DNA of 64,000 bases from positions 87,234,001-87,298,000 of the forward strand of contig OX597816.1 of the NCBI GenBank assembly GCA_951406725.2. Reading direction: 5' to 3'. This DNA is from Octopus vulgaris (Eukaryota). This document shows, piece by piece, positions 1 through 61,095 of this stretch; positions within the stretch are counted from its first letter, which is position 1, and each line of letters starts with the position of its first letter. The notes under the pieces were generated by a model. That model made no database searches, had not been told where the DNA came from, and was given only the letters and a program-made list of their open reading frames with translations. Position numbers and translations under genes: made by a program.

Positions 1-876
1 CGCCACGGGAAATCTAAGCCAAGTGCATTAGATCCCCTGGAAGAAAGCTTCGAATGTATACAACACGAGGACGGAAAACGAACGAAGTGCACGAACAAAA
101 ATACAGAATACGTGACAACAATAAGAATACAAAAACGTAAAAACAATAACGGTAAAAATAAAGTATAACAAATAAACAACAAAACAAAACCAGGACGTAG
201 GACAAGGGTCTTTCGACAGGACGAATTGAGCATGGGGCAGGCTTATGAAGTTGTGCCTAATGGCCACAGGGAGACGAACAAGTACGTGTTGCTTCAACGG
301 CTGCTGGAACGAAAAGAGCGTTCAACAGCGGCTAGCGGTCACGTGAGAACAAAAGACAAGAGAAAGGGACAGATGAAAAGAGAGAGAAAAGGTGGACGAG
401 GGAGGAGAAGAAAGAGACAGATCGAGGGGGCTGGAGGTGAGAGAGATAGAGAAACGTAGAAGGGGGGGGGGAAACGGATGGAGAGGGAAAGAAAGGAGGG
501 GGAATAAGGGAGGAGAGAGAGAGAGAAAGAAAGATTAAGAGTCGTATCAATGCTTGAGAAAAAAATATACATATCGTATAAGGACAATTGTGGATACGTA
601 GCCGCCGATTATATAGGTAAACAGTAAAAATAATTACAGACATGGACAAGAACATGAAACGCCACAGAGACGACACAAGAACCACAGGACGGGACATTCG
701 AAGCCCTCAGTCATCAGTCAAGAACCAGATCATCTTAGCAATTTCGGCTGATTAATCTTGAGATTGCTCCGATATGGCCAGCCCGCCACGGGAAATCTAA
801 GCCAAGTGCATTAGATCCCCTGGAAGAAAGCTTCGAATGTATACAACACGAGGACGGAAAACGAACGAAGTGCACG

Positions 877-3372: not shown

Positions 3373-4609
3373 ACGTAGAAAGTGACACTGTTTAAATCTT
3401 TGTTTGTGCAAGACGGAGGCGGTAGACTGTTTATTATTATTTTTTTTTTTTTCCTTTGTAAGGAAAATATAGATATTAGAGATATGGGATGATCAGAAGC
3501 ATAGGTGGTGTAAGAGTTGAGTAGGAGGCATACAGATTTTATAACTACTATTCATGCCTGACTAACCAAGCAGAAATGATAGTAAGGAATGTGGGTTCGA
3601 TTTATATTCGTGTCGTATGTTAATGCTTTTGCGTGCCGATGTGTGTACATTATATGTGTGTGAGTGTTTTTTTTTTTCCTTTTGTTTTGTTTTATTTTAT
3701 TTTCTTCGCTCTTAGTGTAATATTGATTTGAGTAAATGAATTTATAAGAAATAGATTTCTTACTAGCGCTCAATATTTTGAAGTAATTTTGGACAAAAGA
3801 CTATTTACGAAATAAATCAACCTTAATATATACCTGCTAGTTTGGGGGTTGTTTTTTTTTCAACTTCTAAAGAGATCAAAAGGAAACATCGGCCCTGGTG
3901 GACTTTGAACTCAAAATGCAGAAAATCAAAACTAGATATGTCATGAAATATTTCTATTGAGTTCTGAAACTAATTCTACTTATTCCCTGATATATAAAGA
4001 AAAACTGAATATTGTAATGTTCATACCTTTCTCAAGACTACTAACATTATAAATTGTTTCTTTTGTCTTTGTTTAGTCCTAGGCTAATCCAGACCATTCA
4101 AATTTATGATCAAAGTGATTTCAAGTTAATACTATCACGCTTTTTTCCTTCTTTTCATGCATACTATTTTCACTGTTTTTAGAACTATATCATATAGCAA
4201 GCTTTTCTCTTTCCTCAAAAGAAATACGTTGGAAAGAAGTCATGTCGCATTTTTGACACTTTAAGGACACTTTTTCAATACTTACAGTAAAATGAGCATT
4301 AGTTTCTTGCATACTAGTGTGTGTGTGTTTCTGCGTTCGTTACGTCGAAAGTAAACTATAGTAAAGAACACTTTACGTCGTTTTAATGAGCCCACATCAT
4401 GAAGTAGCCATCCTTATGGTTTGTGATCCCATGGAAAAATCATCATATTTTAATTCGTGTTCAAGATACCTTAAACGTGTTTCACAGACTCATCCCTCGC
4501 CAGTGTAATCTTATTCTGTGGAATAGACAAGATGGGTATTATTCCATATTCCTCGGGTTGAACCTGCATAAATTTCTTCCGATTCCTATATTTGCCATAC
4601 AGGAGAATA

Positions 4610-17090: not shown

Positions 17091-17193
17091 CATATATATA
17101 TATAGTTTACATTTACAGAAAAATAAGAGACGAAGACAGGTGTGGAAACAACAAGCAGCTGTATCAGTTTGACGCTCGGGAAGGTGAGAAAGT

Positions 17194-17229
17194 CTTTTAC
17201 GTTTCGAGCCTACGCTCTTCAACAGAAAG
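17194..17229 (-). ncRNA. Minimal type I hammerhead variant (A6U)
   Basis: CUUU-CUGUUGA-A-GAGC-GUAG-GCUC-GAAA-CG-UA-AAAG. Confidence 0.65.
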
Positions 17230-17830
17230 GAATACGAGGAAATAAACAGAGAGAAAGTTTTAAAAAAAACTTGTGGAGTTAGCTGTCAATATGTATGCAT
17301 ATATACATACATACATACATACATACATACATACATACATACATACGTAAGCCCACTCCACCCTACATGTTCCAACCCCACCTTCCTTATCCTTCCCATC
17401 CCACGTCACCCCACCCCTTACACCTACACACCCACATACCCCACCTTTACCCCTACCCTTGCTTTCCCCAGTCCCGCCTTCCCCACCTCCCAATGTGATG
17501 TGATGTGATGTGTTGTGTAGGGTGATGACCCTACACAACACATCACATCACGAGACACGACCACGCACACAACAGAACTGACCACTTCATAGACCCACAT
17601 TTTTACACCTACACTTACACACACACGTCAAGATCACCAGCCCTCTTCCACACGCACATACGAACTCTCTTATACAAACGCACGCGCACCTTCGTTTTGG
17701 GATCACCACCACTTTGTTATCTCCCCTTCTCCTTAGCTCTCCTATGTGACCCTTCTGTCCGGCCTTCGCCATGATAGATCGCTAGCCACTACACATTCTT
17801 TATTTTCTCTCCTTGTTTCTTTCTATGTTC

Positions 17831-17866
17831 CTTTCTGTGGAAGAGCGTAGGCTCGAAACGTTAAAG
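17831..17866 (+). ncRNA. Minimal type I hammerhead variant (A6U)
   Basis: CUUU-CUGUGGA-A-GAGC-GUAG-GCUC-GAAA-CG-UU-AAAG. Confidence 0.6.
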
Positions 17867-18308
17867 ACTTTTTCATTTCGCGAGCGTTATACTAGTTACA
17901 AATATATTATTTGTTGTCTACACCAACTGTCTTCGTCTTTTGTTGGCTTTTTTGTAAATCTCCCCCTACATGCATACAGACATACATGCATACAAATATA
18001 TATATATATATGTACAGGTGAGGAAGAGAGGGAGAGAGAAAAAGACAGCGGGAGGAAAAAAGGTTAGCTGACAAAACCTACTCAGTCTACTCATATAACA
18101 TTCAAAAACGTACACGGTTAAGAAATGGTGTGGAAAGGTTCCTGTGAATAGAAATACAAAAGGAAAGAAGGTGAAAGTGAAAGAAAGAAAGAGCATGGGA
18201 GACTCAACAAAATAGATATGCAAGTTGAAATGAAAAGCGAAAAAGGTAACTAATTGAAGGTAAATAGCTTAAGGAACGAGTTTGTAAAAAGATAGGTGTG
18301 TTGATAGG

Positions 18309-28059: not shown

Positions 28060-28517
28060 AATTAAGATGGGAGAAACGCAACGAATGTAGAAAGCACCAC
28101 ATCACACCACCCCGCTAGCACTGACCACTTCCCAGCACTCCACACCATCATCCACACACCTACACATGCACACACGCACACGTTAAGGTCACTAGCCCCT
28201 ATCCACACGCACATACATGCTCTCACATACACACGCACGCGTACCTTCATTTTGGGATCACCACTTCTTTATCATCTCCCCTTCTTCCTAGCTCTCCAGT
28301 TTGACCACTTCTGTCCGGCATTCGCCATAATTGATCGCTAGCAACTAAACCATCTTTTTTATTTTTTCTTTCTGCTTATTTCTGTGTTCCTTTCTGTTGA
28401 AGAGCGAAGGCTCGAAACGTAAAGGACTTTTTCACTTCCCGAATGTTAAACTAATACATCTGTTTATTGTTTACACACCCGTTTTCGTCTTTTATTTTTT
28501 TTTTTTTGTAAATTTCA
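28060..28517 (+). mobile_element. Penelope-like pLTR segment with a minimal A6U hammerhead at 28390-28425
   Basis: Colinear with 17600-17965. Motif CUUU-CUGUUGA-A-GAGC-GAAG-GCUC-GAAA-CG-UA-AAGG. Confidence 0.7.
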
Positions 28518-28532
28518 ACTAGATATATATAT

Positions 28533-28604
<72 letters not shown>

Positions 28605-34152: not shown

Positions 34153-34167
34153 AATATATATATATTC

Positions 34168-34360
34168 GATCGCTAGCCACTAAGCTTTTTTATTCTCTAT
34201 CTGTTTATTTCCTCGTGTTCCTTTCTGTTGAAGAGCGTAGGCTCGAAACGTAAAAGACTTTTTCACCTTCCCGAACGTTAAACTAAAACATCTGTTTGTT
34301 GTTCTCACATCTGTCTTCGTCTGTTTTGTTTTTTGTTTTTTTTTTTTGTAAATTCCAACT
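34168..34360 (+). mobile_element. Penelope-like pLTR segment with a minimal A6U hammerhead at 34221-34256
   Basis: GATCGCTAGCCACTA start as at 17777 and 28333. Motif CUUU-CUGUUGA-A-GAGC-GUAG-GCUC-GAAA-CG-UA-AAAG. Confidence 0.75.
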
Positions 34361-34543
34361 ATATATATATACACACACACACATACTTCCATATAAGAGA
34401 CCAAAGTGTACGTACGCCGCTATATTTTATATATAAAAAATACAAAAATGGGACAAGAACGCAACACATCCAGACAGTTAGGTGAAACAAAAGAAGAAAA
34501 ACAAAATATCCAGATAGACGATACAAGGAAAACAAGGACGGAT

Positions 34544-34685
34544 CATTCAGAGTTTTCTATCTTCAGTCGAGTTCCAGATTATCTTTGCAATTTCTGCTGA
34601 TAATACTCGAGATTGCTCCAGTCTGGCCAGCCCCAAGGAAAGATAATCTAAAAGCATTAGATTCTTTGGAAGGAAGCAACGAATG
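34544..34685 (-). ncRNA. Rearranged hammerhead, copy 2 (C11.1 mutated); predicted cut after 34611
   Basis: GGCUGG-CCAGACU-GGA-GCAAU-C-UCGAGU-AUUA-UCAGCA-GAA-AUUGC-AAAGAU-AAUCUGG-A-ACUCGA-CUGAAGA. Confidence 0.7.
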
Positions 34686-35317
34686 TAGACGAAAATAAGG
34701 ACGGTAAAAAACAGAAATGTTACAAAAATATAAATAACAGGACATAACAACAGGTTTTCTTCAACTAAGGACAAATTAAATTAAGCTGGCGTGTGTGGAA
34801 GTAAAGCCTTACGGCAGGAACATAAGATTTAACAAGCTCAGGAAGGAATATAGATGTTGCACGGACAGTAATCCAACCAAGAAAGAAAGATCAGGCCTGG
34901 CCGAACACCGGTCACGTGGGGAGAGAAGAGAGAGTGAGGTAGAGGCAGAGGGATAGAAGAATTGAGGGGGGTGCGAAAGAAAAATGAAAGAGACACTTTG
35001 AAGTGAAAGACAGAAAGTGAGCATGAAGAGAAGGCCAGGAAATGTGAGAGAGGGGGAACGAAAGAACGAAGAGTGGAATGAACGAAGTGTGAAAGGGCTG
35101 AAAGAAAGAACGAAAGAATACAAAGGACAATAGCGTCGTACAAAATTTAGATATATATACTTACATATAAGAGACCAACGTGTACGTACGCCGCTATATT
35201 CTATATATAAAAAATACAAAAATGGGACAAGGACGCAAAACATCTAGACAGTTAGGTGAAACAAAAAAAGGAAAACAAAATATCCAGATAGACGATACAA
35301 GGAAAACAAGGACTGAT

Positions 35318-35459
35318 CATTCGGAGTTTTCTATCCTCAGTCGAGTTCCAGATTATCTTTGCAATTTCGGTTGGTCATACTCGAGATTGCTCCAATCTGG
35401 CCAGCCCCAAGGAAAAATAAGCTAAGAACATTACATTCCTTGGAAGAAAACAGCGAATG
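35318..35459 (-). ncRNA. Rearranged hammerhead, copy 3; predicted cut after 35385
   Basis: GGCUGG-CCAGAUU-GGA-GCAAU-C-UCGAGU-AUGA-CCAACC-GAA-AUUGC-AAAGAU-AAUCUGG-A-ACUCGA-CUGAGGA. Confidence 0.72.
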
Positions 35460-36054
35460 TATACGAAAACAAGGACGGAAAAAAATAGCTCTTCTCTCCC
35501 CACGTGACCGGTGTTCGGCCAGGCCTGACCTTTCTTTCTTGGTTGGACTACTGTTCGTGCAACATCTATATTCCTTCCTGTGCTTGTTAAATCTTATGTC
35601 GCTTGTCCCGTCGTAATGGTTTCCTCAAGCTGGGACATGACACACCGGTAGTATAGGATTTGGGCGTTCCTCGTATCCCTTGGCGTAAGGACAAAGTAAT
35701 CTTTCACGTGGGGCCACAGGTTCTGAGACTCCAGGCTATCAACCTGAGCGACCTCTGCCTCACACACAGCCGTTGCAGACTCTTCAACAGGCCCTTCTTC
35801 CTTAGGCCGAACAAAAAAATGTCTTCACCTTCCATAACGACAAGCGATAACTTGAGAAGCCGATAACGTACAGTGCTGTTGCTGACACTGTAAGACTGTC
35901 TGTAACATGACAACGTCGTAAGTGAACACAACTTAAAACTACACAATGCTGCTCAGCTAACTACTGCTGCGTCAATAAATCACGTCTTGTCACGTGTACA
36001 TGTAGTCATCTAATAGTGTGCCTGACGGAGTCTTCGAGATACGTGCACAACAGA

Positions 36055-59803: not shown

Positions 59804-59811
<8 letters not shown>

Positions 59812-61095
59812 ATGAGGGTGTCTAAAAGACACCAACATGCCGAAATAGCAGTCGAAACACTGACTATAGTACCACGTTAAATGTTCATATCGCACCATGA
59901 GGTAAAGCGGAGGGACAAAACATACAAGCAAAAATTAATGAATAATTCAAGATCCAAGGATTTCTGGTTCTGCTTTAGATAAGCTTTACCGTCATCAATT
60001 GAATATATCAAGGGTACATAAATACAGATATATATATGCACAGCAAACGATATACTTACATATACGAGCGTCGTACATACATACATATGCACGTATGGAC
60101 ACAGCCAGTCTGAATCGCCCGCCAAATCACCGCATAAGTACGACATGGTTAAAATAAGCACCGCAGTGAATATAATAACGAATTATATAAATTTATATAT
60201 GAGGATAATATCGATATTTAAGTGTCGAAATTATCAACTATACGGTTCCGAGTTTTTACAAAGGTAAAAAAATTTTTAACAATTAAAAATGAGGGTGTCT
60301 AAAAAACACCAACATGCCGAAATAGCAGTCGAACCTCATGGTGCGATATGAACATTTAACGTGGTACTATAGTCAGTGTTTCGACTGCTATTTCGGCATG
60401 TTGGTGTCTTTTAGACACCCTCATTTTTAATTGTTAAAAATATGTAAGTATATCGTATATGTAAGTATATCGTTTGCTGTGCATATATATATCTGTATTT
60501 ATGTACCCTTGATATATTCAATTGATGACGGTAAAGCTTATCTAAAGCAGAACCAGAAATCCTTGGATCTTGAATTATTCATTAATTTTTGCTTGTATGT
60601 TTTGTCCCTCCGCTTTACCTCATGGTGCGATATGAACATTTAACGTGGTACTATAGTCAGTGTTTCGACTGCTATTTCGGCATGTTGGTGTCTTTTAGAC
60701 ACCCTCATTTTTAATTGTTAAAAATATGTAAGTATATCGTATATGTAAGTATATCGTTTGCTGTGCATATATATATCTGTATTTATGTACCCTTGATATA
60801 TTCAATTGATGACGGTAAAGCTTATCTAAAGCAGAACCAGAAATCCTTGGATCTTGAATTATTCATTAATTTTTGCTTGTATGTTTTGTCCCTCCGATTT
60901 ACCTCATGGTGCGATATGAACATTTAACGTGGTACTATAGTCAGTGTTTCGACTGCTATTTCGGCATGTTGGTGTCTTTTAGACACCCTCATTTTTAATT
61001 GTTAAAAATTTTTTTACCTTTGTAAGGTATTTCTTTCATGCTGGCCACTTGATAATTTCGACACTTAAATATCGATATTATCCTCATATATAAAT
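59804..61095. mobile_element. Hammerhead-bearing tandem/inverted repeat element (retrozyme-like): 477-bp unit, then an inverted array with a 284-bp period
   Basis: 59804 repeats at 60281; the inversion junction is at 60333/60334; 60334-~60720 repeats 284 bp downstream almost identically. Confidence 0.85.
60516..60575 (+). ncRNA. Type I hammerhead variant (C3U); identical copies at 60800-60859 (+) and 59945-60004 (-)
   Basis: AUUCAA-UUGAUGA-C-GGU..GCUU..AAGC..ACC-A-GAAA-UCC-UU-GGA-UC-UUGAAU. Confidence 0.62.

Follow-up and report, generated by a model that had tools for sequence, protein, structure and literature searches.

Two hammerhead-like motifs lie 774 nt apart on the minus strand of a 64-kb stretch of Octopus vulgaris DNA (the whole stretch analysed, here called the window), and a third lies near its start; in all three the parts of the hammerhead stand in an unusual order. 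The question that this locus raises is whether motifs rearranged in this way are self-cleaving ribozymes, and what kind of element carries them. With a probability of about 0.82, we read the first two as aged, predicted self-cleaving hammerheads located close to the 3′ terminus of a non-coding Penelope-like element (PLE), likely Naiad-derived, with blocks in the order S-G-C and a core split between A9 and G10.1.

Anatomy of the insertion and its predicted hammerhead copies

The window insertion is, judging from its sequence, an old, non-coding PLE. It bears PLE hallmarks, namely a fixed 3′ end, variable 5′ truncation, a partial tandem, a 5′ inversion, a tail and a microsatellite target (Table 1); the anatomy described in PMC8557442 and PMC11167929 includes 5′ inversion, partial tandems with pseudo-LTRs (pLTRs) and a 30–40 bp tail. 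The ~38-nt tail of the insertion is followed by a (TG)n/(TA)n run. No similarity to PLE proteins was found by tblastn in the 64-kb window, and a GIY-YIG remnant considered inside the unit was dropped because that search gave no match; among the family A and B loci examined, only L011 and L103 had Neptune-like protein fragments in their flanks. The sequence past 35599 was rejected as part of the element, as it belongs to a separate ~1.1-kb repeat. This older interspersed repeat (35600 to ~36200), with 79–84% identity to its other copies, is the target of the insertion.

Table 1. Positions of the insertion, its parts and the hammerhead copies in the window
Feature	Position	Strand	Remarks
Inverted 5′-truncated piece	35489..35599	+	96% identical to reverse complement of 34820–34930; PLE-type 5′ inversion
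Partial 5′-truncated unit (pseudo-LTR)	35157..35488	-	91% identity with 34383–34714
Full 774-nt unit, non-coding family B element	34383..35156	-	pyrimidine-rich strand, without PLE protein similarity
~38-nt extension past usual family 3′ end (~34421)	34383..34420	-	matches 30–40 bp PLE tail
Copy 2, split-core S-G-C hammerhead motif	34544..34685	-	sequence and pairings
Copy 2, stem II 5′ strand; brace; stem III′	34632–34627; 34626–34619; 34616–34613	-	
Copy 2, UC; stem I; stem II 3′ strand	34612–34611; 34610–34605; 34600–34595	-	C11.1 lost
Copy 2, GAAA; stem III; brace′	34594–34591; 34590–34587; 34581–34574	-	
Copy 2, stem I′; CUGAAGA; closing arm	34572–34567; 34566–34560; to 34544	-	
Copy 2, predicted scissile bond	34610..34611	-	after C17 at 34611; descriptor match
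Copy 3, same split-core S-G-C motif	35318..35459	-	sequence and pairings
Copy 3, P0 5′ arm; hairpin P1	35459–35446; ~35445–35407	-	
Copy 3, stem II 5′ strand; brace; stem III′; UC	35406–35401; 35400–35393; 35390–35387; 35386–35385	-	
Copy 3, stem I; stem II 3′ strand; GAAA	35384–35379; 35374–35369; 35368–35365	-	one C-A mismatch in stem II
Copy 3, brace′; stem I′; CUGAGGA; P0 3′ arm	35355–35348; 35346–35341; 35340–35334; 35331–35318	-	
Copy 3, predicted scissile bond	35384..35385	-	after C17 at 35385
Copy 1, intact motif of young family A	695..839	-	predicted cut after 762

The family B unit also contains, at 34911..34918 (-), the word CACGTGAC, which we take to be E-box-like. It is common to the units of families A and B, which otherwise do not align, and is a possible internal promoter element.

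Another element abuts the insertion at 34162–34385 (+) and holds a minimal hammerhead-like word, UUGAAGA-GCGUAGGCUC-GAAAC, at which U replaces C3. This element shows 73–75% identity with the pLTR of an intact Neptune-type PLE and has relatives in the window at 28327–28547, 17093–17276 and 17777–17955. A 276-nt arm was also seen within 59804–61000, in two copies of inverted orientation with 98% identity.

In each of the three motifs the minus strand reads GGCUGG, a brace strand, GA and GCAAUC up to the predicted cut, then the six-base strand of stem I, four bases, the stem II partner, GAAA UUGC, the second brace strand, the stem I partner and CUGANGA. The block from the start of the stem II 5′ strand to the stem I 3′ end is 66 nt long in every copy (35406–35341, 34632–34567 and 783–718), as the preliminary description had stated, and a second family A copy lies 783 nt from copy 1, across the window start.

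The same description had claimed compensatory changes between the copies, and most of them hold for the families at large. Copies 2 and 3 form stem I as UCGAGU/ACUCGA and copy 1 forms it as UCAAGA/UCUUGA, and the two compensated pairs are confirmed: among 38 distinct B-type and 28 A-type sequences, pair 3 is G-C in 35 of the former and A-U in 27 of the latter, and pair 6 is U-A in 37/38 and A-U in 28/28, respectively. The change at the end of the brace was likewise found, with U-A in 38/38 B-type sequences, while A-type sequences have C-G (14/28) or U-G (14/28), and N7 of CUGANGA is indeed U, A and G in copies 1, 2 and 3. For the closing helix, the proposed GUUUUC/GAAAAC exists in copy 3 but not in copy 2, which has GCUUCC, and most B copies have GCUUUC/GAAAAC with a C-A mismatch, so it cannot be called a clean family-level compensation. 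An alternative helix, AUUAUC/GAUAAU, is present in copy 2 but does not hold up in most B sequences. We also noticed an intermediate subfamily (e.g. C1:28107588) with stem I UCAAGU/ACUUGA, one compensated pair away from A and one from B, which together with the U-G intermediates at the brace end suggests stepwise compensation.

Decay of copies 2 and 3, suspected from the start, is supported: they are 91% identical to each other, 6/89 and 2/89 positions depart from the B majority, C11.1 is changed to A in copy 2, and in copy 3 the third pair of stem II is a C-A mismatch. The locus that they form is a dead or weak member of its family. The predicted cuts after 35385 and 34611 are 774 nt apart, as noted earlier; since copy 2, the downstream ribozyme, lacks C11.1, the locus is probably a poor source of monomers, and with the ~5% divergence from the family in addition, double cutting there is probably inefficient.

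The word CUGANGA alone occurs in the window at chance level (28 seen, 23.6 expected), and the core was absent from the unconstrained minimum free energy folds, a model which leaves out pseudoknots, of all three window copies. Rfam gave 0 matches in the window at the gathering score, and the 41 matches obtained at E ≤ 1 for 9 motif loci included no hammerhead family; the motif fits neither the Rfam covariance models of types I, II and III nor the normal circular block order.

Wiring of the core compared with type SGC

Eckert et al. 2023 (PMC10085705) describe the hammerhead core as three blocks, S (the cut site), G (GAAA) and C (CUGANGA with strands of stems I and II), and assume block C to be unbreakable, which leaves six orders; among these, type SGC (HRIMA-1) was validated experimentally. 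The elements of the hammerhead class, i.e. CUGANGA, GAAA and the UH core with helices I, II and III around it, are present here, with copy 2 lacking C11.1. From 5′ to 3′ the full predicted motif runs P0, hairpin P1, stem II 5′ strand, brace and stem III′ with UC, and after the cut stem I, stem II 3′ strand, GAAA, stem III, brace′, stem I′, CUGANGA and P0′. As in type SGC (PMC10085705), the order is S-G-C and the core is complete; stem I and the stem II 3′ strand are joined by a short linker, of 1–5 nt here and typically 3 nt there, and on their other sides the two stems are tied together by a brace helix. Unlike type SGC, block C is broken: the stem II strand that would directly follow A9 is absent from that position, the stem II 5′ strand lies upstream of S, and the chain is interrupted between A9 and G10.1. 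Instead, A9 enters the domain-closing helix P0 within 0–2 nt, and P1, which follows the P0 5′ arm, ends 0–2 nt before G10.1. The predicted wiring corresponds to a circularly permuted SGC with its opening within block C, and would be the seventh permutation.

Nine exemplars of the fold were compared, consisting of six metagenomic sequences, families A and B, and the Naiad_Ovul type. The pair G10.1–C11.1 was found in 9/9 of them, although the descriptor demands merely any Watson-Crick pair there, whereas the other 12 tallied helix positions have 2–4 pair types each; within the octopus families it is kept in 30/38 B-type and 26/28 A-type sequences. The P0/P1 junction, which lies outside the descriptor, scored above the shuffled mean in 9/9 exemplars (Fisher p ~0.006 over 8), with individually weak values in 6/9 (p 0.10–0.58). 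Since the pairing of stems I–III and the brace is demanded by the descriptor, it is not independent evidence; the independent evidence consists of the position bias described below, G10.1–C11.1 in all nine, and the P0/P1 junction.

These exemplars also bear on whether the motif is simply an ordinary type SGC hammerhead, in which the nucleotides directly following A9 would make stem II, and pairing of the upstream GGCUGG would be alternative or inhibitory. Apart from the experimental validation of that type (PMC10085705), such a reading can draw on family A, where the CUGA after the core pairs over 4 bp with UCAG, with a 2-nt bulge before GAAA. But the equivalent pairing reaches only 1–3 bp in the other eight exemplars, with offsets of up to 2 nt allowed, and is impossible in family B, whereas the upstream stem II has 5–6 bp with G10.1–C11.1 in 9/9. 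A strict scan for the conventional stem II right after A9 gave 0 matches in 80 Naiad-RT loci and the window. We consider the ordinary arrangement very improbable.

The PK hammerhead (PDB 8YDC; Zhan et al. 2024, PMC11300833) shares the core in a pseudoknotted frame with a distant bracing helix, but appears to keep the A9–G10.1 bond, which the split core does not. In the open-access literature we found no tested precedent for a core without this bond, no description of a core divided at A9/G10.1, and none of a permuted hammerhead in Naiads. Both the comparison and the likely genomic trace of cleavage presented below lend good support to the predicted split core, which we regard as a new structural form within an established class of ribozymes. 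If true, it would overturn the working rule of a contiguous CUGANGA strand and stem II, and would place non-circularly permuted ribozymes in animal genomes, in thousands of copies.

Families in the genome and a likely trace of cleavage

The exact core-arrangement pattern occurs at 4,320 places in the 2.8-Gb genome, vs 0 for the reversed pattern. Family A, with copy 1, is young: 40/40 listed copies are 100% identical over 181 nt, from 2,335 candidates. Family B, with copies 2 and 3, is older, its other listed copies being 93–96% identical to copy 3 (40 scored among 2,607 candidates). The structural descriptor is passed by 30/30 family A and 13/27 old B copies. In both families the 3′ end is constant, at (TA)n, and the extent of 5′ truncation varies between copies. 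Neighbouring motifs on the same strand are mostly 772–783 nt apart, the exceptions among 22 listed spacings (some of whose loci overlap and are counted twice) being 624, 728, 744, 754, 769 and 1,121 nt; the 772–783-nt range covers nearly all family A tandems. Arrays reach up to three ribozymes deep, at loci L076 and L077.

If cut RNA were reverse transcribed from the 3′ end of the element, run-off at the cut would leave copies that begin at +1, and we searched family A for them. Copies with their first mismatch at −1 numbered 305, at which 22/30 inspected were truncated (~224 when scaled), compared with 82 copies for the control at +1 (12/30, ~33), 54 for the control at −2 (8/30, ~14), and 36 for a (TA)n microhomology control pooling −1 to −3 (14/30, ~17); these counts cover one family and a few neighbouring positions, and the inspected loci were the first 30 listed per class, with no random draw. 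Copies whose own sequence begins at +2, preceded by a T of the target, also fall into the −1 class; a G at −4, being a subfamily variant, was not counted. The peak lies at the site equivalent to the predicted bond of copy 3. All 22 truncated mini-copies reach a (TA)n-type run 116–183 nt 3′ of the cut, with 15 joins of the form ...A-UCAAG and 7 of the form ...T-UCAAG. One Naiad_Ovul-type copy (L122, 1/12 viewed) begins at its own predicted cut. Most copies, on the other hand, run through the predicted cut site, so uncut or re-ligated RNA would be the commoner template.

The motif could instead be a conserved RNA fold that is non-catalytic or no longer catalytic, e.g. one binding or stabilising the RT, with the peak caused by RT stalling or by (TA)n microhomology. 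The many copies that run through the site would agree with this, as would the 15/22 joins that can use the T of a (TA)n target; for a Poseidon PLE, hammerhead cleavage is described as dispensable for insertion in vitro, with no reads ending at the cut (PMC11167929). Yet the microhomology control accounts for ~17 copies over three pooled upstream positions vs ~224, the 7/22 joins with ...T-UCAAG are unexpected from a pure (TA)n phase, and every catalytic base is kept while the helices turn over. We find such a fold improbable. The truncation peak at the predicted bond is likely a fossil record of cleavage, and the predicted ribozyme likely cuts in living cells. The rearranged hammerhead, its helices and the AUC cut site, as first proposed, are thus supported both by covariation between independent families and by the pile-up of truncations at the cut. 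Insertions that start at the scissile bond bear on whether PLE ribozymes cut in vivo and whether the cut RNA is reverse transcribed.

The cut site and the greater part of the family A unit are covered by contigs from three runs guessed to be RNA and one of unknown type, and run X9 has very high depth immediately 3′ of the cut; RNA ends, level and strand cannot be read from contigs.

In the mechanism that we propose, intact copies would likely be transcribed from an internal promoter that may include CACGTGAC, fold and cut after AUC, ~120–190 nt before the 3′ end of the element. The stacked P0 and P1 would hold A9 beside G10.1, replacing the missing bond, while the brace would tie stem I to stem II. 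A PLE RT/endonuclease acting in trans would prime at (TA)n; on cleaved RNA, run-off at the cut would give the mini-copies, and reading through uncleaved or re-ligated RNA would give copies of 1 to >2 units. Cutting at two sites would yield monomers of ~780 nt, with ends clasped by P0, stem II, the brace and stem III, and there is an even chance that these are ligated into circles, as in animal retrozymes.

Retrozymes give circles in coral, mussel and axolotl (PMC7229834). The animal non-LTR retrozymes (Cervera and de la Pena 2020, PMC7229834; Li et al. 2026, 10.64898/2026.07.22.740005), for which a non-autonomous origin from PLEs has been proposed, resemble the octopus families in their non-coding head-to-tail units, one hammerhead per unit and thousands of copies. 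They differ in having type I hammerheads, which are absent from families A and B, units of 200–400 nt and proven circles, whereas here the ribozyme is permuted, the unit is ~780 nt, the arrays are short and circles are a prediction. It is nearly as conceivable that the ribozyme is real and the 774-nt spacing reflects the PLE partial-tandem unit only, the RNA being cut once or used uncut with no circular monomer. Partial tandems and pseudo-LTRs are normal in PLEs (PMC8557442), the mini-copies show linear cut RNA serving as template, and 780 nt exceeds the length of the described animal retrozymes (PMC7229834); against it, the unit is non-coding and of near-constant length in two diverged families, and arrays with three ribozymes occur as in circle-forming retrozymes (PMC7229834). 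In contigs, a head-to-tail genomic repeat junction is the same as a circle junction.

Relation to Naiad elements

Craig et al. 2021 (PMC8557442) describe Naiads as being without canonical hammerheads, list HHR_core and HHR_half_core cases, including Naiad_Ovul, that are left unexplained, and regard cephalopod Naiads as remnants. Naiad-type proteins were obtained here from an RT fragment of the octopus genome (P0091 has an N-terminal GIY-YIG followed by the RT), and the best 80 of 361 confirmed metagenomic Naiad-RT loci served as the test set. The descriptor, with 1 false match in 1.92 Mb of shuffled window, matched in 6/80 loci, all on the sense strand and downstream of the RT (68.6 kb), with 0 matches in 163 kb of ORF and upstream sequence and 0 in 232 kb of antisense sequence; seven decoy cores had 0 matches in the Naiad loci. 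The endonuclease is N-terminal to the RT in 4/4 of the motif loci that cover that part (of 6), so that an N-terminal GIY-YIG with RT accompanies the same fold in metagenomic loci but is missing from families A and B. Rfam at the gathering score found nothing in 20 Naiad loci without the motif.

Reading by eye, not computed, the last ~400–600 nt of 50 among the 54 published Naiad 3′ ends (PMC8557442, File S5), we recognised the same fold at 10/50, namely in Naiad_Obim, Ovul, Amil, Aacu, Anas, Bfor, 3_Chem, 2_Movir, Plae and EuTe; stem I of Bfor has just 2 bp, and Esco fits partially. The helix sequences in these Naiads differ from those of families A and B. As 74/80 loci and 40/50 published ends gave no clear match, the fold is not universal in Naiads.

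Within the octopus genome, the Naiad_Ovul-type motif, taken from the published octopus Naiad consensus, was matched exactly in 286 copies (control, 0), and at locus L114 a C-terminal RT fragment lies ~1.3 kb upstream of it. No intact Naiad was found there, broken ones only (best 81.6 and 83.5 bits, one search having a stricter first look), and a search of viral contigs yielded no relative. Families A and B share with Naiads (PMC8557442) the (TA)n targeting, 5′ truncation, partial tandems, 5′ inversion and the 30–40 bp tail, but they have no protein and no DNA that can be aligned to the fetched Naiads. Nor does their DNA align with that of the Naiad_Ovul-type loci or of any autonomous PLE fetched, so their Naiad origin, which we consider likely, rests on the shared fold, its position and the (TA)n target.

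Taken jointly, we judge it rather probable that this is a seventh natural hammerhead wiring, whose core works without the A9–G10.1 bond by way of a two-helix junction; that it is the missing ribozyme of a wide Naiad branch (ctenophores, cnidarians, acanthocephalans, crustaceans and cephalopods); that it drives a still-active ~780-nt retrozyme; and that it has left a nucleotide-exact record of cleavage in vivo. If true, this would explain the descriptor searches that reported Naiads without canonical hammerheads.

The 15 regions around weak RT matches in the genome contained mostly PLE ORFs that we take, from their domain order, to be Neptune-type, and the motif occurs in none of them. At least three Neptune-type families with long open RT and C-terminal GIY-YIG frames were seen (L276–L280, L293–L301); L276–L280, which carry pLTRs, are 96–98% identical and so were probably recently active, and the motif is absent from these near-identical, apparently intact PLEs. 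In the Naiad-type loci L167, L183 and L193, three of the 74 without a descriptor match, CUGANGA followed by GAAA 35–50 nt further on lies 3′ of the RT, possibly as hammerheads of normal order with a long stem II.

Other conserved 3′ end motifs, some of them possibly twister-like by eye, were noticed in File S5 (PMC8557442) in bivalve and hemichordate Naiads, 4_Chem and 1_Movir, and hammerheads of normal order in the nematode Naiads Nbra and Parc. Naiad_Ptep and Naiad_Smim, also read by eye, have the S-G-C order with long stems I and III and a different arrangement of stem II, and are possibly further variants.
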